Shown here piece after piece: positions 1 through 28,450 of a stretch of 64,000 nt of DNA. This DNA is from Sarea resinae (taxonomy: Eukaryota), in NCBI GenBank assembly GCA_026026165.1, contig JAPEUD010000081.1, positions 1-64,000 of the forward strand, read 5' to 3'. The position numbers and the translations under genes are program-made. Positions within the stretch are counted from its first letter, which is position 1, and the number at the start of each line of letters is the position of its first letter. Under the pieces are notes generated by a model. That model saw only the letters and a program-made list of their open reading frames with translations, searched no databases and was not told the DNA's origin.

Positions 1-283
1 TAAGATGCAACGCGGCCTGCAGTGCAGGCAAGCAGCGCCAGCGCAGCATAGAGGGTTAGAGGTAAGGCTAGGAGCACTAGAGGCAATGTTTTATCGCGTC
101 TAACTAGTGGCAACCCTACTGCTGCAATGCTACTTGGTTTAGGCTAGCCTGGCCAGCTAAATAGCTGATAGGCAGAGCGAGCGCGCGGCGCACAGAGAGT
201 TTTTTTCCTTCTAGACAATCTAGCAATATTTTCTTCTAGACTGTCTAGAAGTTTGATCGTCGAACAGCGACATCAAGCGACGT

Positions 284-3200
284 CTAAGCTCGCTTAAGCT
301 CTTGCTAAAGGTGCAGGATCACTTTGATTATCACCACTATAGCGTTGCTGACCCACTCTCCCTACACTGGCTAGATGTGCCGTTGCCTGAGCCACTTGCT
401 GTATCCTTCGAGGTCGCCTCGCTGGCTGAGAAATCTGGCCCTGCTGATTAGCTCCTACCCTCTCGCGCTGGCTGCCGCGTCGGCTGCAGCGGTGCGCACG
501 ATCGGCACCAGTCGATTCGGCCACTAACAGCTGGCCTGAGTGTCAACTCTAGTGCAGCAATACCGCTGACTAATGCTGCATCGAAAGCAGCTGTGGGTCT
601 TCTCCTCTAAGTCCTCTCAGAACCGGATTTTCTGTCGGAAGCTATTGACAGCCTGCTTGCTAAGCGCACCCCGCTGCAGGCATTAGTGCCAGCCATGCTC
701 CTACCGCTCCGCCTGCCTAGCCCCTTCCTTGAGCCCCTTGGCCACCTAGCAGACAGCGCACCGCCCTTCGAGCCAGTCAAGTGCCTGCTTGACGACGGCC
801 TGCTGCCGCTCTGCTTTGGCCTCGCGGGTCTGCCACTTAGTCAGGCCCTCGCTGCATCGATCGCACCGCGCCGCCGTGCCTTAGTCGACCTTGCCACACC
901 GCACCCCCTTTCTGTCAAGGTAGCCGCTCATGATCTGCCGCCGGCAGCCCTAAGTGGTGATAAATTCCTACATCGCCTGCTGGTCGACAGTACGCCCTAC
1001 AACGGCTGCCGCTGTGAGCTAGCTAGCCTCTACAAGTATAACAGCATCCACGTCCTTGCTAGCGCGCCTGGCCTGGCCTGACTCCTGCGCGAAGTCGATC
1101 ATGCTATACAGCACCCTAACGTGCAGCGTCATTAAGATCCTGCTGTAGTCGACCCTAGTGCTAAGCGCGCCAGTGGCGACGATCTAGCCCCCTTTAGACG
1201 TCTACTGCCTAAGCTAGCGCTCCTTATCCTCTGATGTCAAGTGATAGTAGCCGCACTGTAGAGTCTTAGCCAAGGCCTTGCACGCCGCCTAGGTTCGGCA
1301 GTAGATCACCCCTTTCCCTTGCTGCTGCAGTCGCTGCTGCAGCTGCTGTTGACAGAGGTGCGCCGCGCTCTCAAGCAGCTAGCTATCTTTGCACCGCACT
1401 ACTAGATAGCAGGTGCGCGGCCGGATCGTGCGAGCGCGAATGCAGCGCGCCACTAGCATCAGCATGCTGTCAGCTAGCTCTTGCTCTAGAGCAGGCAGCA
1501 ATGTCGCGGTCAGTAGTATTATCAGGCACATCATTATCTGCAGATGCTTGAGATCGTTGAGCCGCGGCTGGTAATCGTTAGCTGTGAACGTCAGGTGACA
1601 CTCGTCTACAACAATCCGCTGCAGCAGACTGTGCCGCTGCAGCGCTGTGGCGTACGTTAAGAAACCCAACCTACTAGCGAGATCAGCGCTGACTACTACC
1701 ACTGCAGCGAAGCTGCTATCGCTGTGCCTCCACTCAAGACTGTTAATGCTGACCCGCTGCAATCGGCTGACTAGATCGTTCACTAGGGCGCGGAACAGCA
1801 CTACTACTACTGTCACTAGCGGCCCTTGCAGCCCTTTCTCCTACCGCTGTTGCTTGAGCCAAGCCGGCAGCATAAACAGCAGGCTCTTCCTGCCTCTAGT
1901 AGGCAGCACTACTACAGTCAGCGTCTTATGTCGCAAGATCGCTTGCAATGCCACGCGCTGCTCTGCCGACTTAAACTCCACTTGACTTAACCCTAGCAAT
2001 TGCTGCATGCTAGTAATAACCTCCTCTAAGTCGACGTCGATCTCTTGCCTCAAACTATTATCATCCTCTAGCAGCCGAAACCGCTTGCGGCAGCCACAGC
2101 CTATCACTAGAACTCTTGTTTCTTCTCTCTCCTCTTGCTCCTCCTCTGGCGGCTGCTTCTCCTCTGCTTCCTGCTTGCGCTTTGGCTTTCCCTTAAGCTC
2201 AGGCTTAGACTCGCTCTGCTGCGCTGCACCGGCCAGGCTGCTGCCACTATCAAGCTGTAGGAATGCGTGCCACGCCTGACTCACTTAGCCGAACGCGTCA
2301 AGAGAGCGCGCGCTGAGATTCTAGACAATATCCCTAGAAACACCATATCGAATTTGCCTGATAGCAGTGGTGTGCCTAGTCTGCAGCTTGAGTTTGTCCT
2401 CCTGCTTAAGCTGCGGCTCCTCTACATCCTTAGCCTTGTCCCTACAATGCAGCGCTCGCCCCTTGCTGGCGGCGAATTCCTTGCCCACAAATTTCTAGCC
2501 GATTGTGATCGCCACATGTCGATAGTCCTGCGTGGTCAGCCGACATTTTAACCGCGTGGATGTCTCGCGGCTAAGGACCTAGGTCAGCCGCTCTGTCAGC
2601 CACGGCTGCCCTTTAGCTGTGCCCTAGATAAATTCATTGTCAAGCCCGCCCTCTAAGCCAACCGCGGTCTGCAGGTGGCTGTAGAACGGCCGCATGTAGG
2701 CTAGGTAGACGACTATAAGCTGGCTGACTCGCTACAGCAAGAAGCGCGGCACTACCTTTAGGGTATTGTACTAGGCCTAGCTCTTATAGTAGCGGGTCAC
2801 TAGCACGACTAATCTATCCACCACGTAGACATTGCGATCCTGCAGCAGGCTGTTGCGATAGCGCACTAACAACTCCTTAGTGCCGCGGCTGGGCTAGCCC
2901 CTAGTCACATGGCAGCTAAAGAGTAGCAGCTTAAGAAAGGCCTGCACGCGCCAGCAGTAGTCCCTAACTAGGCCTGGTTCCTAGCCAGTGCTGTCGCGCT
3001 GTCAGAGCGGTTTTTTGTCTTCTCTCCTTTCTTTCTTCTAGACTGTCTAGAAGTATCGAGCTGTGCAGGCGACGCGCGCCACTATTAAGGAGAGCCCCTA
3101 ATCGAGCCGGTTCGCCGGATTGCTAAGGAAGGACTAATTCCGCTGCGTGAACGCTATGTCGTCCTTGATGCCAGCTAGGTCGACAGTGAAGCAGTCGCCT

Positions 3201-4945
3201 AGTTCGCGGCACCACATCAGCTCAGGCCAGAGGATGGCCTTAGCGGCCTCGATCGCCTAGTGCGCTATCTGCTAGAAGTAGGCGATCACAATCGGCTTGC
3301 CGCAGAAGCGCAGCGACTGAGCATCCTAGGCCTAGTTTGTTGTCGCTGTGCTCAGCTGCCGCCAGCCAATGTACTTAGTGTATGTGAGCAGGCTAATCAT
3401 TGTGCTTATTAGGGTTAGCAAGCTGTCGGCTAGGAATATCTTGCGCTGCCCTAGGAAGCGCTTCTGCTTAGCCTGGCCCTGCCGCTCCTGCGCGGCCGCT
3501 AGCAGCAGCACCTCGACCCTGATCACCTGCATGCAGTAGACCACCCTGGCCAGCTAGTAGGAGTAGCTTGTCGCTGTGTGCAGCCGCTTAGTGAGGGGGT
3601 CGATGCTGAGCACAGCGAGGAAGTGGACTAGCGCGCTGTCAAAGGGGTCTACTAGTAGTAGGTCAAAGATAAGCGCCTGCGAGAAGGCTAGCACTCAGTC
3701 GACCTGCAGGGCCTTGTCGCTATCAAGCTTGAGCGACTCCTAGACAGCCTGCAAGCGCTCGTTCTGCTCTGCAGTCAGATGCAGCAATTTGTCGGCATCC
3801 TTTAGCTGCGCGTCAGGTGCGTGGGCAGCGAAGGTGCAGTGGGCGAAGACGCGCAGGCAATAGCAGATCAGACGCGCCTAATAGTTAGCATAGCGCACCT
3901 GAGCCTCCGCGGTCTGCAGCCGACCTAATGGCTTCAGGTGCACCTTAGTGCGCTTCTCGCTGCGCAGCCAGCGGCAGAGCTTGAGCAGTAAGGTAGCTAG
4001 CCTAGCCACGCAGCGCTCGATCATCAGTCAGGTGACCTTAGCGGCCTAGCTAAGGATCTGGTCTAAATCCTGCCGCTGCCGCTGCTGCCGCGGCCGCCTA
4101 AGTCGCTGGTTAGAGAGCTCGCTAGCGTAGAGAAGGTGAGCTATATTCTGGCAGCGCAGGTGGGCCAGCCAGCCAGTGCGACTGAACTAGCCAGTGCGAT
4201 CAGTCTTCTGCACCTCGCTCTTAGTCAAGGCCTGACTCTGCTTGTGCGCGGCCTGCTAAGCATCGAACTCGCGCTGGATCTAACTAGCTAGGTTGTCAGA
4301 GGCTGCTTCGCCTAGCCGATTATTATTGTAGCTCCTCTCTGCGTGCTCCTTTTCTGCTGGCCGCACCAGAAAATATCGCTGCAGCCTGCTAGTGAAGAAG
4401 GTCTGCACTAGAACTAGCTGCTAATTCGGCGAGTCCTCTTCTTCTTTCTCCTCTTGATTAGCAGACTAGGCGTGCTGCTTATTGCTGTGCTTCTGCATGA
4501 TCTAGCGATTCGCCGTGCTAAAACTACAGTCTCAACAGGTAAAGCTGTCAGTGGGTGCCCCTAGAGCGGGAAATGCAGGGCAATTCGGCAGTGGCAAAGG
4601 CACAGCATGCGGATCAAGTAGGCTGCAGCCTTAATACTGCGCTCTAAGCAGACATCGCTCCTTAGCTAGCATCGCATGACTGTCCTTTAAGTGGCGGTCT
4701 ATATTTCGAAGGGCGTAGCTATGTTGACAGCAGATTAGGACCTGATAGTTTGGCTCATAGTGGAATAATAACGATCGCGATCCTGATCTTGATCTTGATC
4801 CTAATCTCTCTTGCTGCTCCTCTTGCTCCTCTTGCTCCTCTTGCTGCTCTTATTGCTCTTGTTCTTGCGCCGCCTGCTGCAGCTGCCGCTGCTAGTTATC
4901 AAGGGCGGCGGCAGCGCTGCTGCAGGCGAAGTGCGTAGTTAGCAT
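284..4945 (-). pseudogene. RIP-inactivated multidomain gene of the telomere-linked-helicase type: Zn-finger/DUF3505-like N-terminus + tyrosine-recombinase-like domain + RecQ-like SF2 helicase + Cys-rich C-terminus (~1550 codons)
   Basis: All motifs checked lie in one minus-strand frame starting at ATG 4945 and broken by TAG/TAA stops typical of RIP. Motifs: YEPNYQVLICCQHSYALRNIDRHLKDSH (~4760-4680); CHVTRG*PSRGTKE (R at 2887-2885); YYK; YRH (2524-2516); QTRH-x8-Y; Walker A relic LPTRGRKSLLFMLPA; DECH; TAT; ATGALSTRVD; QESGQARR; CRR..CDRC Zn site. The 3' end is approximate. Confidence 0.85.
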
Positions 4946-5030
4946 GCCTTAGCTCACTGTAATAACCTCTTAACCCTCCTTCTTTAACCCTAAGTGACGC
5001 TCGAACTCTCCTAGTAGATTTCGCTAGCCA

Positions 5031-5541
5031 GGCTAGCTAAATAGCTAGCAGGCTAGGCAGGCGCAGTGTATATATATAGAGAGAGCTTTTTCTTCTAGAC
5101 TGTCTAGAAGTTTTTTAAAATCTTTAAACGGCGGCTAGTAGATCAGACGCAAGCAAGCCTTCTCTTTTCCTTTAAGCGCTGCGCAGGCGCTAGAGGCGAA
5201 GTGCGCTGTTAGTCTGCCTTAGCTAGCTGCAATCACCTCTTAATACCTTGAACCCTAAGTAACCCTAAGGGATAGGGCAACCCTAAGGGTGGGAAATCGA
5301 CGCTGGCAGGCCAGCGATCGAACAAACAGAGGGCAGGCGCGCGGGCAAGGATTAAGGCAGCTATCAAGGTGGTCAGGTTAGTAGGCAGAGGGCGTTTTTC
5401 AACAGGCGCGAAAACACTGTCGAGAAAACACCGTCGATTCTCGCTTATTCTCGCTTAGGCTCGGTTCGATGCCTTAAAGAGGCGAAGATCGGCGAAAATT
5501 AGCGAGAAGACAGTGTCTTTAGCTAGTGCAATGCGGTTAGG
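5031..5541 (+). repeat. ~510 bp direct repeat, copy 1 (upstream/terminal region of the helicase element)
   Basis: Aligns colinearly with 9080-9560; differences are mostly C>T/G>A plus a few short indels. Confidence 0.95.
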
Positions 5542-5544
5542 CTA

Positions 5545-8500
5545 CAGGCTGATAGCTTATATTAATCGATACGCTTGTTCTGCTACCTATTTGAGTTCTC
5601 TAAGACATATTAGCAGCGAGACCTAAGACAGTGACACACTCGACAACTATTAAGCATAGCAGCGCTATTACAATTCAGCGGTTCCTGCATCTTTAGGACT
5701 GTCTAGCACTTATCTAGTGCGATCTAGTTTGATCCCTTACAACGTTAGCAAGAGCATCCTAGTCTTAAAGAGACAGGCACTTCTGCAATAAAACAGCACT
5801 ATAGCTCTCTAGAGTGTGCTTAGTCTCTTACAGCAAGCATAATGCGCACACTTAAGGCTCTTTAGACTATAGTAAGATATCGCTATATGTAATAGATCTC
5901 TTAACTAATACCTCTATCCTTAATGCTAGCAACGTGCTTTAGCACTAAAGACTCTCTAAACCTTAGAGCTATTCTCTTAGTTAAGCTAGCAACGCCTCTT
6001 CCTTAAGATAATTCTATCAGCAAATCTTCTATAGCAGATCATAGAAAACCACTGGTTTAAACAATGCTTCCTCCTTTGCTAGCTAGGCCTTCGAATTCTA
6101 GGGCGACAATAGGTTTATAATAACATTTATAATCGATATACAGAGATCTTACTAAGGATCCTGCAGAGACTAGGCCTAGAAACCAAAATTTCTATCGCAC
6201 TAGATGTATAGCAGAGTCTAAATAAGATATCCTTTCTTTCTATAATAGGGTATTTTATTGACAAAGACTAGAATTACTAGGAAGTCCTCCTAGGGTTTGA
6301 AAAGATAACTAGAGAGCACTCTAGTCGCAACATAGCTACGTTACTACTTAATCGACTTTAGTGTTTCAACATTTAGGTTTGTCTTTAATGTTTATAGTAA
6401 CGCTTTTAGGTAACATTACATTGTAGGATTGCATACTAGCTGTGACAACAGATAACGCAGGCAATAACAACACAATGCGTTAAGAGCTAACAAGTCTACT
6501 CGCTAATCACTATTAGATTGTATAGGATTATAAGGTTGCTTATATGCCTTGCCTTACGCATGTTATTCAGCTTGCAGTCGTGGCTTTTAATAAGTGCCTA
6601 AAAATTACTGCTTTAAACAAGTCTATACAAGATACCTAGTTAGATACAGACTAAGAGCTGCTTTAGCAGCTTCCTTCTAAAGACTCTTTTAGCAGCACGT
6701 TGCAAAAGGTAAGTGCTAACAACCCTTGTCTATTACTACCTCTAAAGTTTCTAGATTTGTGCACTTGCTGTCTATATTGCTGCTTTATTACAGCGAACTG
6801 CGCGCTTTTATGATCTGCAGCCAACGCTAGTCAATATAATCTAAGATGTTAAAACTTAATAGAACTCAACATATAATATGCTGAAGCAGGCCTAGCAGCT
6901 GCGAGATGCTCTTTAGATGTTTCTTGTTAGCAAAACTAGTCCTGCTATACGTAGAACTCGTGTCTCTCCTACTAGTTAGGACTATATTCGCTATCTGATT
7001 GTCTTACTAAAGCTATTTAATGATTAGACAAGAGCTGTGTCTTAGACTAAAGGCGTAACTATCTATAAGACCTAGTTTATATACTCTTAGATTTTTAAGC
7101 ACTTAGAGAAGCATCTAAACAAGATGCAGCCTAAGCAGACACTCTAGAAACAAGAGCTTACTTCTGCTATAGAAGCAGCAAAGACTAAGCTCTCTAAGTA
7201 CTACTAAGATACTAAAGGAGTACAGAGGAGAATGTTTAATTTAGCATGCATCCTTAATCCCTTAACAAGGCTTAATCTATATAAAGTATGTTACCTAAAT
7301 CTGTTACCTTTACCTTATCCTCTAGGAATGTTTTGCTAATAGCTAAGAAGTCTAATAACTAGGGCTATAAATATTTGCGAAAGTACTGGCGCGAATTTAA
7401 GGACTATTATTAGTTGCATTATGTAAGAACTAAAGTTGCCTCCTTAGATGTTGCTGCACTCTCTATATTAGCATTAGATGTTAATTCACTTGCATAGGCT
7501 AAGACGCTTTAGAAACAACATCGCTTTGTTACAGATCTAGTCAGTTAGTATCTATCTTTGCTAGCTACAGATTATAAGGATCCTTTGCAGGTAACACTTT
7601 CAGGTAACATTTCTATGTGTAGGTGCTAATATTCCACTAGTTCTAGCGATCACACTACTAGCCCTTGCTTAAACAAATAGCAAAAGACATTCTTACTATA
7701 CCTAGAGCTGCTGTTAGTGTTGAACGGACTTTTAATAAGGCATAAGACCTTATTACCTTTTGTTAAAGTCGCCTTTCAGCAGAAACAGTTCAGAACACTA
7801 TAGTTGTAAAGCACTTTGATTGCGATAAACTCTGCTTCTATATAGGTAAAGATAAATCTAATAGTATTTCTAAGGACACTAATTATTAACACACGCTATC
7901 AGCTGAATTTAATGATTATTTACTTGTTATTAGTGATAATAATAAGCTAACCTTAATTAATAGTAGGCCTGCAATACAGGATAACACAGACCTGTATAGG
8001 TTTTCTAGTGATAAGCACTCTTTACTACTTCTACCTCTACCTACAGTGCAGCTAGATAAACCTGCTTTATAGCAGCAGTCTTTGCTTTAACGCTCTAGGC
8101 ATAACAACGCTTAATCTATATTGTCTTAAAGAAAGCGCCTGCGTTTAACTGTAGATGATTTATTTGTTAGGTTAAAGGTACAGAGGCTCTCTTCTAGAAC
8201 TAGTCTATTTCCTTCTTAATTGCGTGAATAGTTACACTTGTAGTAGTTTGCTTTGTATATGCTACAGCATATATTTATCTCTGTTAGAGTAGAATTAGTT
8301 CTAGTAAAACATACTACATTATAAAGGTTTAGAGGATGATTTAGTAGTTTTTATATAGTGTAGATTATGTAGGGCACTATAAACTAAACATATAGAGTGT
8401 ATTATTATACTATTATTCTTATTCTACAATTCCTATAGTTTTATCGCATTTACTCTCTAGATATTACCTCTATATATTACCTTTTAATAATCTTATCTTA

Positions 8501-8668
8501 TTAATCTACTCTTTATCTTATTAATCAACCTGTATATACCTAATAGGTAGGCTATAGGCCCTACAGCTAATTGAGCCTGCCTAAACCCAACCTGATTATG
8601 TAATCAGGCGGGCTAACCCACCTAAACCTTAATTTAGGCTGAGTACCTAAACCTAAGTAGACAGCCTA
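5545..8668 (+). mobile_element. RIP-degraded hAT-family DNA transposon, probably 5'-truncated
   Basis: Relic motifs: BED-finger half EHPSLKETGTSAIKQH (~5750-5800); KISIALDV*QS..FLSIIGYFIDKD*NY*EVLLGF (~6185-6300); TTDNAGNN (~6445); PCLTHVIQL (~6550); KT**NSTYNML (RWNST box, ~6850); hAT dimerisation AKDILTIP..SVERTF..SRLSAETV (~7680-7790). GT-AG introns are visible, and subterminal repeats lie at 8580-8668. Confidence 0.88.
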
Positions 8669-9079
8669 AGTAGTATTAATAGTAAGAGATAATTAATTAA
8701 GTGCTATAGAAAAGCAGCTCTTTAAGGGTTAGAGATATAGCTAGCAGTATTAGAGGCGATTTTAATATAATAGTAATTGCTTAATTCTACTCTACTTAAT
8801 CCTACTTTCTACTAGTAAGGTAGGCTAATTAAGGGCTAAGTAGTTAGAGTATATACCTAGTATATCTTCTTAATCCTAGTAGGATTACTAGCTGCAATAT
8901 AGTTAGGGTTTATATAAGGGTTACTTAGGAGAGTTACCTAGAGATACTATAAATAGTTACCTAGAGATACTATATACATGTCTTTTCTCTTATATCTCTT
9001 ATATAATATATATGTAAATCTTTATACAATGCTTTACTCTACTTTACTTTACTCTACTCTACTACTTTATAACTCTTAG

Positions 9080-9560
9080 GGCTAGCTAAATAGCTAGCAG
9101 GCTAGGTAGGTACAATGTATATATATAGAGAGCTTTTTCTTCTAGACTATCTAGAAGTTTAATCTTTAAAAGGCTACTAGATTAGATATAAGCAAGCCTT
9201 CTTCTTTCCTTTAAGCGCTATACAAGCGCTAGAGGCAAAGTGCGCTATTAGTCTGCCTTAGCTAGCTGCAATCACCTCTTAATACCTCTAACTCTAAGTA
9301 ACTCTAAGAGATAAAGCAACTCTAAGGGTAGGAAATTAATGCTAGCAGGCTAGCAATTAAACAAACAAAGGGCAGGTATATAGGTAAGGATTAAGGCAGC
9401 TATTAAGGTAGTTAGGTTAGTAGGCAGAGGGCGTTTTTTAACAGGTATAAAAACACTGTTAAGAAAACACTGTTAATTCTTACTTAGGCTTAGTTTAATG
9501 CCTTAAAGAGGTAAAGATTAGTAAGAAGACAGTGTCTTTAGCTAGTGCAATATAGTTAGG
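9080..9560 (+). repeat. ~480 bp direct repeat, copy 2 (more heavily mutated solo copy)
   Basis: Colinear with 5031-5541; CG dinucleotides of copy 1 are largely converted to TA/TG. Confidence 0.95.
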
Positions 9561-10388
9561 TATAGCAGAGTTAGGGTTTAAGGTAGAGAGCGAATTAGAT
9601 AAATATTAAGGTTAGAATAGAGAGAGAATTAAGATAATATATATAGTCCTTACATACTTACAAACACCTACAAAGCTAAGGATAGGTTTGTCAGCCCAAG
9701 TAGGACGACGCAAAGAGACCCTTAAAAGACAAATATAGACAGCAACACAGTGGAAGCAAGGAAGAAGTTATAAATATCACCTATTAAGAGCACCTACTCT
9801 AGAGTATCTAAAGTAGGTGGTGATGTCGATAGGCACGGTTCCGAGCTTGGTAGCGAGGCGACTAGCCCGAGGGGCCCACGTGGGGCCGTCTGCAGCCAGC
9901 TCTAATCCTTGGTGTCATCTTCTCGGAAAAATTTCCTTTCTTGCGCATACCTTTTTATCGTTTTTAGCATCTGCCCCTCAGCTGTTCGCCGAGTTCTTGT
10001 TCTTTGTTCATTGGCCGACACCGCTAGATGAGCTGTGCCGCTTAGAGATCTACGCGCCCGGTCCAATGCTTATCATCGAATGGCTACAAGAGCGGAGATC
10101 AGCAGCTGCGCCCAAGAAGTGGAGAAGACATGTATCAAATGAAGGCTCGCCCTGATATCTGTGTCGGCGCAATGCGCGGCCGGCTGATGCCATACCTTCC
10201 AAGGTCAATACTCGAGAGGGCGTTAGTGGCACTATCTTTCTCCAAGCTATCTCGTGTTCGTCCGATCTTATTATTATCATCGCCAACCTCCAAAAATCTC
10301 CAAGTTGCTACTCTTCTTCACGACTGAATCTTCATCGTTATCAATTTTTGAGAACTGTCTTCAGCTGGAGCCTGTCAAGGACGACAGA

Positions 10389-20584: not shown

Positions 20585-23500
20585 ATGCTGCTTGCCATTG
20601 ACGACCTTCTACGCCTTCGCGCAGGGGAAACCGCGCAGCCCCATATCCTCGCCTGCCCAAAGGGAGAGAAGAGCTTGACGGAATATGAATATTTCACCGC
20701 TCGCGATGTTGACCGATTCGCTGGTGCGGCCGCGCATACGCTCCGCACCAGAGGCCTCGAAGAAGTGGTAAGTACGTCAATCAACCAGAAAGTAACGACC
20801 CAAATACTAATCGCAATACAGCAGGAAGAGAGACCCCTCGTCGCGGCAGTCTTGGGCCCATCAAACCTCGAATATCTCATGACAATCTGTGGTCTAAGTC
20901 GGCTTGGCTATACCGTCCTCGTTTTTTCTCCTCGTCTCTCGGCTCCCGCTTACGAGGCGCTTCTGGATGAGACCAAGTGCGCCATTCTCGTCCATGATAA
21001 ACACTACTCTGATATCGCTGCACAAATAAATGGATCGCAGAATACTAGCCCTCTTCGCAAGATCGCATTGCTCTCTAGGACTGAATTCGACCTTGATGAA
21101 CCGGTCGAGTGGCGGCCCGCCCATGTCAAGACCGAATCCACTCTGGCCCGGGTGGCCTTCATAATGCATTCCTCCGGGTCCACCGGCTTGCCCAAACCCA
21201 TCTACCATACTCACCAGCGGTGCCTTCGAACATTTCGGGATGGCTTTCCTTTCTCTTCGCTGATAACCTTGCCGCTGTATCATTCGTATGGGTTCTCGTG
21301 CTTCTGGCGCGCGATGCATGATCGTAGTCTGATCTATCTGTTCGGTTCCAATATGCCGTTGACGGTCAGCAACGCCTCTGGCATATTGCAAGTGGCAAAG
21401 CCTGAAATGGTTTCCACCGTGCCGTATCTTCTCAAATTGTTTGCAGAGTCCGAGAATGGCATTGCAGTCTTGAAAGAATGCAAGCTCGTTACTTATCATG
21501 GCAGCACTTGTCCTGATGAGCTGGGAGATCGACTCGTCAAGGAGGGGGTAAATCTGGTCGCTCATCTGGGCTCGTACGCTTCACCTCTCTAGTCTTTCAG
21601 TCATATTCTTAGATATGTTGGTACTAACGTCTGGATAGCACCGAAGCTGGCCCATTGGCAAGTTCCTCTCGTCCGCCAGGCGATACCACGTGGAACTATT
21701 ATCGATTCCTTCCATCCGTCCAACCACATGTCTGGATGAAAGATGTAGGTGCAAATAACTACGAGCTGGTCCTGTTGCAAGGGCTAAAGACAAAAGTCCT
21801 GTCAAACTCCGATTCTCCTCCAGGATCTCTGCACACGAGAGATATATTCACACCCCATCCGAGCATCAAAGATGCCTGGAAGTTTATCGGCCGCTTAGAT
21901 GACCGCGTCACCCTTCTCAATGGCGAGAAGGTGCTCCCATTGCCTATCGAAGGCCACATACGTCAAGATCCATTGGTCAAAGAAGCGGTTGTGTTTGGCG
22001 TTGGTAAAAGCGGTCCCGGTCTTTTGGTTTTTCGCAGTCCGCTCGCAGCCAGTCTTTCTGACACGGAATTTCGAGCCAAGATTTGGCCTGTGGTCGAAGA
22101 AGCTAATGCGCTTGCGGAAACCTTTTCTTACATTAGTCAAGAAATGATTCTTATTTTCCCCGATACGATAGACTACCCGAGAACGGACAAGGGCTCGATA
22201 ATTCGTGGCCGCGTTTATCAGATGTTCGCCAAGGAAATCGACGATTTATACCGCAGGCTAGAAGAGTCCCATGGAGGAACGAGAGTTCTAGACGTTCCCG
22301 GAATCGAACAATACCTCCTTGACCTTTGTTCGACAAGAATCAACATTCAGCTCGACAGTCGGGACTCCGATCTATTTCAATCGGGACTGGATAGCTTGCG
22401 CGGAATTGAATTGGCCTCTCATATCAAGTCGGATCTCGATCTTGGTGGAAAGGAAGGGGCTGTCAATCAGAACGTCATATACGAAAAAGGCACCATACGC
22501 GCCCTAGCTCCATATCTATATTCTTTGCGCACTGGCTCAAGTCTTTCTGGAAAAGGCCATATCCAACAGATGGAGGAGCTTGTCTCGGAATATTCAAACT
22601 TCCGCGCTCGTGTCCATGACACAGCGTCACAGGAGAAGTCGGACCATGTAGTTGTTAGTTTCGCAGCTGATCCGTTTATGTTATATTTACATATCAACTA
22701 ACAAATGTGTATAGGTTCTCACGGGTGCTACAGGGTCCCTGGGTGCTCATCTCTTGTCACAGCTCATCAAAACGCCTAGCGTGAAGAAAGTCTATTGCCT
22801 CATCCGCCACCAAACAACGCTTGACAGCACATCCCGGATCAGAGATTCTATGCATGGTCGAGGATTGGACATTCCTCCCGTTTACTATCAGAAGATTGAA
22901 GCACTCGGGTGCAACTTGAGTCAGCCCGATCTTGGTTTAGAGCTCGGCACTTTCGAGGCGATCAAAGACTCCGTGACCCATATTCTCCACTGCGCGTGGG
23001 AAGTGAATTTCAATCTCAGCCTAGAAACTTTTGAGCAGGACCACATCAAAGGGCTATGGAACCTAATCAACCTCTCCTTATCCGTGTCTTCGTCATCACC
23101 TGCCCGACTTTACTTCTGCTCCTCTATCTCCGTTGCGCTCCGCAGTCCCACGGAAAAGGCTGTTCCGGAGGCCCTTATTAACGATTTTGATGCGGCAGTC
23201 TCTACCGGGTACGGAAGGTCGAAGCTCGTGGCCGAGCATATCATCCAGAATGCTAGAGAGCACGGCGCTCTATGCTACGTCCTCCGCATCGGGCAGATCG
23301 TGGGCGACAGCTACACGAGCCCATGGAATAGCAGCGAAGCAATACCGCTGATGATCCGGTCGGCATTAGTCCTCAAAGCGCTCCCTTCCTTTTCGCAGGT
23401 AAGTGATTCGGGTACCTATCATTCACCGCTTCTCTGACTCTTCTAGACGTGTTCATGGTTCCCCGTCGACCTGCTCGCCAAAGCCATCATCGAGATTGCA

Positions 23501-27171: not shown

Positions 27172-28450
27172 GTCGACGTTCCACAAGCTTGGGACGCCAG
27201 AAACGCACAGATCGACAATGGACGCCCGAAAAGCAGAGAATGTAGATTTTAAGTTGTCAATCTTTCTACAGCCGCTCATGGCGGCTTCCGTCGGGCAAAG
27301 CTTAGAAGCATGGCGACGAGATAGTCAAAATGGTGCGATAAGGCGCTAGATTGATGCAGCGATTACCGTTGGTGGAAACCGCGGATGATCTGCAAGGACG
27401 ACAGGGATGAACTCAAAGAAGAAGCTCGAGAACATCGCGAGAACACGGCTCGTACAGCGAACTCGCACGATCCTTGAGACGTGACATTAGTCTCGGTCTG
27501 GCAGTGCTTCTACGCACATGGGATATACAGCGGTAGTCCAACGGCGTGGGGTAGCTGTGGCAAAGAGGTGCCGTGCCACTTGACCTCGTATTCCAGATGG
27601 ATACGGTTGTGTGATGCTCAATACTCGATTCTCTTATTGGCTTTAAGCTTTGGACCCTGGAGAAGCGAGAACGCTCGAGGTTGCGGCTCGCGGCCAACAT
27701 GCCACAAGCGCGAGACTAACAGGAGAGCTCTCAATGTCGCAATTTGGTGGCTTGGAATCGAGATGCTAGAACAGACACTCGGAAGGTGAACGGAAATGGT
27801 TGCAAAGGCTTCTTGCAAACACCTGATGCATTTCGTGAGACCAGAAGCTGAACTTCATAATGAACGCTTCAACTTTCACCTAGAGCGAGTGATGAACCTT
27901 TAAACCAAGCTGTGCAGAAAAGAAACGCAATTGAATCGCAATGGAAATTCCAGAATATCTATCAAGATTAATCCAAGCCACGACGCTGTAACCAGGGCCT
28001 CTGTCGGAATGGTGTTAGGGTTAGGGTTGGTGTTCGTGTAAGTCTTCGCCGTCAGGCAAACACAGTGAACACAACAAGTAAAATTAAAAGGATGACCGGA
28101 GACCACAATAGACGCAGCTAAGCAGTATCACAGTAGGATCCATTACAATCTTATATCCATTTATATCACCCGTGCTGTCCGAGGTCCAGAGGCAGAAACT
28201 TATCGATCTGATATGTATGGGGTGATCAGATAAGAGATTACGTTGGCGACCCACTCTCCAAGTGCCGAAATGGTACCGGCCTCATCATCTTGCTACCTAA
28301 CCTCCCTCGAGTTCGGCGAGAATTGTGTTGAGCGACCTCATCCCGCGACAACTCTATCCAGATCCTTCTTGTGACGCTTCCACGGGTCTCCCTTGGTTGG
28401 TGAGAATCATTCAGAAAGACGGGGCTTTTCAACTGACTGCTCTCATCATC

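Follow-up and report, generated by a model that had tools for sequence, protein, structure and literature searches.

Telomere-linked helicase (TLH) genes lie at chromosome ends in many fungi. TLH regions and their telomere-linked RecQ helicases are known from Fusarium oxysporum, Magnaporthe oryzae and other species, and the function of the genes was still called undetermined in a 2024 preprint on Fusarium (bioRxiv 10.1101/2024.02.27.582403). Cryptons, for their part, are bracketed by short direct repeats that are taken as recombination substrates (PMC3212892; PMC9977147). A locus with features of both systems is found in Sarea resinae. The 64-kb window analyzed here (positions 1 to 64,000 of contig JAPEUD010000081.1, assembly GCA_026026165.1) carries at its left edge a helicase gene of TLH-type architecture, located on the minus strand (284-4945) and apparently inactivated by repeat-induced point mutation (RIP), and a 19-bp palindrome recurs on both sides of this gene and inside it. 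The palindrome may serve the helicase unit as a junction or att-like site, recognized by the unit's own recombinase-fold domain, although this reading is tentative and falls somewhat short of probable.

The recurrence of the palindrome was noted in an initial annotation and is borne out here. In a motif scan of the window, the 19-mer CTTCTAGACTGTCTAGAAG is found without mismatch at 233-251, 3035-3053 and 5092-5110, and with one mismatch, a G>A change at a base adjacent to the centre, at 9139-9157, in each case on the plus strand. The first copy is found downstream of the helicase gene, 33-54 nt from its likely stop, the second occupies codons 634-639 of its reading frame, and the third has the first in-frame ATG 147 nt downstream, so the annotated placement of the copies past the 3' end, within the coding frame before the arginine box and about 150 bp ahead of the ATG holds as well. 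The fourth copy belongs to a more heavily mutated repeat, and its single change turns TpG into TpA, a substitution of the RIP type. An annotated degenerate copy also exists, as the tandem plus-strand sequence CTTCTAGACAATCTAGCAA located 25 nt before the first copy, with three mismatches and with CAGAGAG and seven thymines in front of it, but it extends over 208-226 and not 208-224. The flanking context TTT...T, said to be common to all copies, is common to three; the internal copy reads TTT...TAT.

The expected number of chance matches to CTTCTAGACTGTCTAGAAG is 0.02, and the observed count was reached in none of 100 shuffles of the window. A RIP-degenerate pattern, CTTCYAGACNGTCTRGAAG, detects six sites with three or fewer mismatches (0.10 expected), namely the same five and a weak one at 3737-3755. 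All six are located in the first 9.2 kb, and the rest of the window contains no site past 9157 that matches this pattern with up to three mismatches; a single exact 9-nt half-site, at 23440, occurs outside the first 9.2 kb. The weak relative at 3737-3755, CTCCTAGACAGCCTGCAAG, lies in the coding region, differs from the degenerate pattern at three positions and is near the chance level of the window.

The number of copies overstates their independence, however. Three of them, at 233, 5092 and 9139, do not count as independent occurrences, because each is the right-hand end of the same longer repeat, a module of about 110 bp that is present at about 143-254, 5023-5113 and 9072-9160. The module begins on the left with part B, which includes a second palindrome; an AGAGAG stretch and a T-run follow, and the 19-mer comes last. 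Two modules stand in direct orientation on either side of the gene, and the third is 4 kb away, beyond a dead hAT transposon. Part B occurs on the plus strand at 143-184 (76% identical to 5023-5064), 5023-5083 and 9080-9132. The second palindrome, GCTAGCTAAATAGCTAGC, has 8-bp arms and an AA centre and is exact at 5032-5049 and 9081-9098 (chance expectation 0.05); a less mutated form, CAGCTAAATAGCTG, is present in the 157-174 region, and in every module copy this palindrome is found 42-60 nt to the left of the 19-mer. Both dyads are predicted to form hairpins, and a search for known RNA families returned nothing beyond two sub-threshold miRNA matches (E about 0.3).

The boundary of the repeated sequence coincides closely with the palindrome. 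The first and third copies are alike in their central base and their flanks and stand in direct orientation, and 229-254 is identical to 5088-5113 over 26 of 26 nt, next to a part B that has diverged to 76%. The left flanks of these copies align with a score of 38, which no shuffle of 500 reached, whereas no relationship exists between the right flanks, whose score was matched by 358 of 500 shuffles. Past the palindrome, the two flanks of the gene remain homologous for only 3 nt more, and the palindrome therefore stands at the junction of a 4.88-kb gene-bearing unit and its surroundings. This unit is bracketed by direct module copies, the downstream one of which shares the module only. The gene's 78-nt leader (4924-5001) is repeated upstream at 5194-5266 and 9233-9305 with 74-77% identity, without its ATG, and the module thus lies between two leader copies.

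The bracketed gene is, to judge by its stop codons and composition, a pseudogene killed by RIP. From 4951 to 250, the minus strand can be read as a single frame of 1567 codons, interrupted by 56 stops (45 TAG, 6 TAA and 5 TGA) and without a frameshift. TpA/ApT is 1.57 in the gene and 0.61-0.65 in the rest of the window, and CTAG occurs 16.8 times per kb in the gene as against 2.0 per kb elsewhere. A reading of TAG as a sense codon was rejected, since relatives have W, Q, M, K, R, D, I and other residues opposite the TAG codons, as random nonsense changes would give. The likely stop is the TAG at 284-286 or that at 305-307. The true start codon is uncertain, because the leader that bears the first in-frame ATG, at 4945, is repeated non-codingly at 5194-5266; this ATG is a candidate only, and similarity to relatives starts only at nt 4765.

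Twenty-seven homologues were found, the best with 41% identity over 95% of the length; the named ones are from Dothideomycete fungi, and the relatives carry OrsD (C2H2), DEAD and Helicase_C domains. In the window protein, OrsD (PF12013, E 1e-09) covers residues 62-160 (4472-4768), and two N-terminal C2H2 zinc-binding motifs, as in the TLH family, are visible in the alignment, with C74, H77, H87 and H92 nearly invariant and C139, C142, H155 and H160 invariant. The core at about 962-1999 is a RecQ-type superfamily-2 helicase: a family profile built from the window protein and 11 homologues matches BLM and RecQ5 at E 1e-49 to 1e-46, which justifies the second half of the label "recombinase-helicase" that the gene had been given. 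DEAD and Helicase_C were detected in 11 of the 12 aligned sequences, with the RIP-damaged window copy below threshold. A strongly conserved region of about 480 residues precedes the helicase, and this layout fits, by architecture, the described TLH domain of about 250 residues. The combination of C2H2/OrsD, TLH domain and RecQ in an open reading frame (ORF) of about 4.7 kb matches the TLH type, an assignment made by architecture and published description.

The resemblance to the described TLH-containing region (TLHcr) extends to several details. In that unit too, the ORF is about 4.7 kb long and encodes a pair of N-terminal C2H2 motifs and, ahead of the RecQ core, a conserved TLH domain of about 250 residues; the unit is compact and repeated, with telomere-like motifs at its edge and copies that are often mutated (bioRxiv 10.1101/2024.02.27.582403). 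Unlike the S. resinae locus, however, it is bounded by telomere repeats, and neither a palindrome nor a recombinase fold is mentioned in the Results or Discussion of the preprint (bioRxiv 10.1101/2024.02.27.582403). No terminal (CCCTAA)n tract is present in the window, which has only isolated AACCCTAAG 9-mers, four of them exact and on the plus strand beside the module (one at 4986-4994 and three in 5251-5287), and three RIP-type AACTCTAAG copies in the second long repeat (9290-9326). The 9-mers could be remnants of interstitial telomere repeats, or sites for a factor. Several full-length relatives, among them P0002, P0004 and P0005, are on contigs of 5.2-6.0 kb, slightly longer than the coding sequence, as would be the case if assemblies ended at the borders of a compact unit present in many copies. 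A second helicase copy is absent from the window: tblastn with the window protein returned the gene itself only, and tblastn with 11 intact homologues gave only chance-level matches outside 250-4951 (best E 0.02).

No Pfam family covers the middle, TLH, domain in the window protein, in the 12 aligned sequences or in five domain-only proteins. AlphaFold models were obtained for two natural fragments of relatives, P0031 (pLDDT 73.8) and P0113 (pLDDT 74.9), from alignments of 34 and 40 sequences, respectively. Against the PDB, Foldseek matched the longer model, P0031, to tyrosine recombinases in 24 of the first 25 matches listed (best E 1.4e-2, prob 0.99), and for the catalytic-domain model, P0113, every one of the first 15 listed matches is a tyrosine recombinase (best E 8.5e-3, prob 1.00, TM 0.35-0.41). 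Cre, XerA, XerH, XerD and lambda Int are among the matches listed, with topoisomerase IB and protelomerase lower down. Both models thus resemble, weakly, the catalytic-domain fold of tyrosine recombinases. The nearest named Atlas clusters are three of PF00589, followed by NDC10_II and protelomerase, with scores of 0.82-0.85 that all fall under 0.9 and serve as leads only.

Candidate catalytic residues, placed by motif order and spacing and not by superposition, are well conserved in the family. The first Arg, in ARGTE, is found in 38 of 38 sequences, the Lys of YHKS in 38 of 40, the Arg of YRH in 35 of 37 and the His that follows it in 37 of 38, and the Tyr of RYGV in 33 of 33. The position three residues before the second Arg is less canonical, with Leu in 27 of 38 sequences and His, and so HxxRH, in 6 of 38, and the His/Trp position is occupied by Arg in 35 of 36. 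In the window, the catalytic part lies at about 2252-2989 on the minus strand, with Arg at 2885-2887, Lys at 2783-2785, Arg-His at 2516-2521 and Tyr at 2345-2347. The label "recombinase" is therefore tenable at the level of fold and motif, but no sequence profile ties the domain to integrases: neither Pfam, nor searches with hidden Markov models (HMMs) against PDB sequences, nor hhalign against XerD and Cre gave such a link. On its predicted structure, the domain is recombinase-fold and not a demonstrated member of the tyrosine recombinase family, and it is probably catalytic. A full-text literature search returned no paper that pairs TLH with a tyrosine recombinase, and broader searches gave unrelated ones.

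Recombinase-fold proteins act on several kinds of special site. The lox, FRT and dif cores used by Cre, Flp and Xer have arms of 11-13 bp around an asymmetric spacer of 6-8 bp. The S. resinae palindrome resembles them in having dyad arms for two recombinase subunits and in the direct orientation of its copies at both boundaries of a potentially excisable segment (233-251 and 5092-5110). It differs in its geometry, which consists of 9-bp arms around 1 nt or, in an alternative 6+7+6 reading, of 6-bp arms around a nearly symmetric 7-nt centre, GACTGTC. The annotation had remarked that a 1-nt spacer is outside the usual 6-8-bp crossover core, and this stands; arms are present, without the asymmetric spacer of a core site.

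Ndc10 domain II and protelomerase offer another analogy, since these recombinase-fold proteins bind special chromosomal DNA, namely centromere DNA and palindromic telomere-resolution sites. They appear here as weak leads, through two Atlas clusters, ranked 4 and 30 with scores of 0.84 and 0.82, and through TelA at Foldseek rank 45 (prob 0.06). Ndc10 is non-catalytic, whereas the TLH domain keeps R, K, R and Y, and protelomerase targets are longer, even-centred palindromes. The Y' element of yeast is also a helicase-bearing subtelomeric repeat that is able to amplify, and its spread is attributed to recombination at telomere repeats; no Y' helicase is known to carry a recombinase-fold domain.

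Cryptons share with this locus a protein of the tyrosine recombinase type, a lack of terminal inverted repeats and direct copies of a short putative substrate at the ends, and target-like sites elsewhere mediate rearrangements (PMC3212892; PMC9977147). Their repeats, however, are 4-6 bp long and non-palindromic, as opposed to 19-26 bp within a 110-bp module, and their proteins have a recognizable recombinase, often with GCR1_C, and no helicase, a word that does not occur in PMC3212892. The TLH domain, by comparison, matches no integrase profile. Membership of the Cryptons as defined there was rejected on repeat length and on the recognizable recombinase ORF (PMC3212892).

The internal copy occurs in a context of its own. 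Its codons read F-stop-T-V-stop-K and lie 51 codons before the conserved Arg of ARGTE. The palindrome is the end of a longer plus-strand block at 3003-3056, CAGAGCGG-T6-GT-CTTCTCTCC-TTTCTTT-palindrome, which adds about 14-15 codons to the linker in front of the catalytic domain and resembles 194-254. This linker has 23 residues in the window protein (P0001), 9 residues in nine of the 11 aligned homologues, 10 in one and 19 in another. The peptide encoded by the extra block was found in none of the 147 other proteins fetched, in any RIP-reverted form. The left flank of the internal copy (CAGAGCGG, T6, CTTCT...) is similar to 194-254, the module copy that also bears the degenerate palindrome in tandem. 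The score of this match was reached by 18 of 500 shuffles and by one of the 292 other gene windows, and no significant match to the remaining two module copies was seen. The internal block thus looks like a piece of about 55 nt from the end of a module, comprising about 35 nt of the T-run side and the palindrome, set in frame into the ORF. Copying could have gone either way between block and module. Two further suggestions of the annotation, that the internal copy allows autoregulation or gives rise to deletion derivatives, found no support in this analysis.

A putative site for binding or recombination by the element's own protein, as the annotation had it, fits the anatomy, with direct copies at both edges and an end of homology 3 nt beyond the palindrome. 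This favoured reading, that of a junction or att-like site, is supported by the direct-orientation copies at both gene edges and by the confinement of the site to the first 9.2 kb. It is supported further because the models of the encoded domain match tyrosine recombinases almost exclusively and the candidate residues are conserved, and because the relatives on 5.2-6.0-kb contigs fit compact multi-copy units. The recurrence of the same 19-mer in a second, unrelated context inside the ORF gives the 19-mer an identity apart from the module. What the sequence shows are the repeats and the way they are oriented, the position of the breakpoint and a likeness at the level of the fold; binding and cleavage of the site and mobility of the unit are inferred. 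In this model, the tyrosine-recombinase-fold domain of the gene itself would bind the palindrome as a dyad, and an exchange of strands there would lead to insertion, excision or tandem stacking of the unit, a scheme also put forward for Cryptons and integrated circles. Such events at secondary sites would have left behind the internal copy and the degenerate copy in tandem.

Several observations weigh against this reading. The Foldseek E-values are marginal, none of them reaching 1e-3, the Atlas scores are sub-threshold, and the stretch that bears the Tyr is modelled at a pLDDT below 50. At the sequence level, Pfam searches found no integrase family in 12 sequences up to E=1 or in five domain-only proteins up to E=10. 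HMM searches against PDB sequences were swamped by the helicase, and a domain-only search gave six matches (E 0.28-1.6) with no recombinase. Probabilities from hhalign against XerD and Cre were 0.09-0.3, and the best Cre alignment, which places QPARGTE on Cre LLRIAEI, is non-significant. The 9-bp arms around a single base are unlike the usual core, and the alternative 6+7+6 centre is nearly symmetric and so directionless. The flanks share about 110 bp, from which ordinary homologous recombination or unequal crossing-over could give the same picture, and the identity of the 26-nt block beside diverged flanks is explicable without selection. A single locus supplies a hypothesis and not a rule. 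Finally, the TLH regions of Fusarium are flanked by telomere repeats, and the Results and Discussion of the preprint do not mention a palindrome (bioRxiv 10.1101/2024.02.27.582403).

A broader form of the favoured reading is that TLH units are, or descend from, self-mobilizing cassettes, whose TLH domain, as an active tyrosine recombinase helped by the RecQ helicase, would excise and insert the unit at a palindromic site of the att type. We regard this as unlikely on present evidence. If true, the subtelomeric spread and stacking of these units would be recombinase-driven, beyond a by-product of telomere recombination. If the TLH domain is a tyrosine recombinase and the units are palindrome-bounded, an old descriptive puzzle becomes testable, through site binding or cleavage and circularization of the unit, and a helicase-bearing branch would be added to the few eukaryotic elements mobilized by recombinases (Cryptons, DIRS and Starships).

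The strongest competing explanation, doubtful but not far behind in its merits, is that of a passive repeat, in which a subtelomere-type module of about 110 bp was copied by segmental duplication, unequal crossing-over or gene conversion and the palindrome persisted as a RIP-immune sequence. Three of the four copies do lie in one module, and the region is a patchwork of duplications, with the leader present three times and a hAT remnant. The substitution pattern is in keeping with RIP: between 5023-5560 and 9072-9580 there are 71 transitions and 11 transversions, and 67 of these 82 substitutions are C>T or G>A, most of them at CpG (19 C>T and 19 G>A), followed by CpA/TpG (8 and 7). This CpG-first context bias is of comparative interest for the host lineage. 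The 26-nt identical block contains no CpA, no CpG and one TpG, and the sole change in the fourth copy falls on that TpG, the only one in the palindrome. The perfect conservation of the block needs no selection, because it lacks the CpA and CpG that a RIP-like process strikes. If the palindrome is only a RIP-immune island of this kind, it serves as a warning that perfect conservation of a motif free of CpA and CpG in RIP-affected DNA is not functional evidence. TLH regions elsewhere are also described as recombination-prone (bioRxiv 10.1101/2024.02.27.582403). Passive copying would account for the internal copy as a small ectopic conversion or template-switch insertion into an already dead or tolerant gene. 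However, it leaves unexplained why the flank homology ends within 3 nt of the palindrome, why a piece of about 55 nt that ends in the palindrome is set in frame and in the same orientation in the ORF, and why there is a tandem degenerate second copy.

A cis-regulatory role is improbable, though less so than the possibilities that follow it. In such a model, a dimeric host factor acting in transcription or on chromatin would bind the 19-mer together with the second palindrome and AACCCTAAG; the site would be part of a promoter or terminator module some 150 nt ahead of the gene, and the downstream copy would belong to the next unit. The 147 nt between the palindrome and the first ATG agree with this, as do the two dyads and the telomere-like 9-mers of the module, and odd-centred dyads are the kind bound by dimeric factors. 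The model has no known factor to call on, however, and explains neither the coding copy nor the position of the breakpoint. Nor does the sequence after the downstream module resemble the start of a next unit: positions 1-142, tried as the start of a further unit in a tandem array, score 17, compared with 14.9 +/- 2.1 for shuffles, which does not support a tandem array.

It is quite unlikely that the palindrome represents abutted terminal inverted repeats, that is, two 9-bp transposon ends left adjoining one another in a footprint or a minimal deletion derivative, with TTT as a 3-bp target duplication and a parent element with CTTCTAGAC...GTCTAGAAG ends. Although TTT occurs on both sides of three copies and a hAT remnant is nearby, hAT elements make 8-bp target duplications, and the internal copy reads TTT...TAT. 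A search for inverted ends found no convincing terminal inverted repeats in the hAT block (5560-9070), no matching ends bound the remnant, and hAT terminal repeats were rejected as the source of the palindrome. The window contains no longer element with such ends, and since three of the copies form one duplicated module, no more than two insertion events can be counted.

A short retained intron, a reading that concerns the internal copy alone, is very improbable: a minus-strand GT...AG span of exactly 45 nt (GTCTAG...CTCTGACAG) can be drawn through part of this copy, and its removal from the extra block of 14-15 codons would restore the linker length of the relatives, but GTCTAG is far from the fungal GTRNGT, the branch-like CTGAC is 2 nt from the AG, the span is purine-rich, and the identity with the flanking palindromes is left unexplained. 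A Helitron 3' end, which has a hairpin 10-12 nt before a CTRR terminus inserted before T and goes with a Rep/HUH protein, was rejected, as neither strand has CTAG and then T at the expected place after the palindrome and the gene has no Rep domain.

A pre-RIP form of the palindrome, CTTCCAGACTGTCTGGAAG, had also been proposed. With it, the internal copy would read open and in frame as F-Q-T-V-W-K. Of 19 conserved Trp codons in the gene that now read TGG or TAG, 9 are TAG, and of 13 conserved Gln codons that read CAG or TAG, 2 are TAG; CTAG makes up 0.67 of CTAG+CCAG+CTGG in the gene, compared with 0.17 outside, which corresponds to roughly 47-60% conversion per site. Because every CCAG/CTGG arm must have been converted at this rate, the 6-8 conversions required would have, by our own arithmetic, a probability of about 0.2-5%, and the proposed form appears disfavoured if the conversions were independent.

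Beyond the third copy of the palindrome, the repeat structure continues to the right. Region A, of about 430 bp (5113-5541, plus strand), is shared with 9160-9560 and includes the leader copy at 5194-5266 and the three AACCCTAAG 9-mers at 5251-5287; 5031-5541 and 9080-9560 are 80.8% identical overall. Between the two copies of module and region A lies the hAT remnant (5560-9070, plus strand), which is about 3.5 kb long, RIP-degraded and 35% GC. Dimer_Tnp_hAT was detected in its stop-riddled plus-strand frame 3 at about nt 7647-7811 (E 1.8e-05, 24.9 bits, cut-off 21.4). A comparison of this block with the helicase gene in purine/pyrimidine space showed no similarity, and the gapped version was uninformative, with scores equal to those of shuffles. 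The genes farther to the right are ordinary and encode an MFS transporter, a peptidase S66, a GH64 protein, an NRPS-like reductase and an OPT transporter. Among such ordinary genes, an interstitial telomere-type repeat (TTAGGG) of about 2.5 units is located on the plus strand at 28014-28028.

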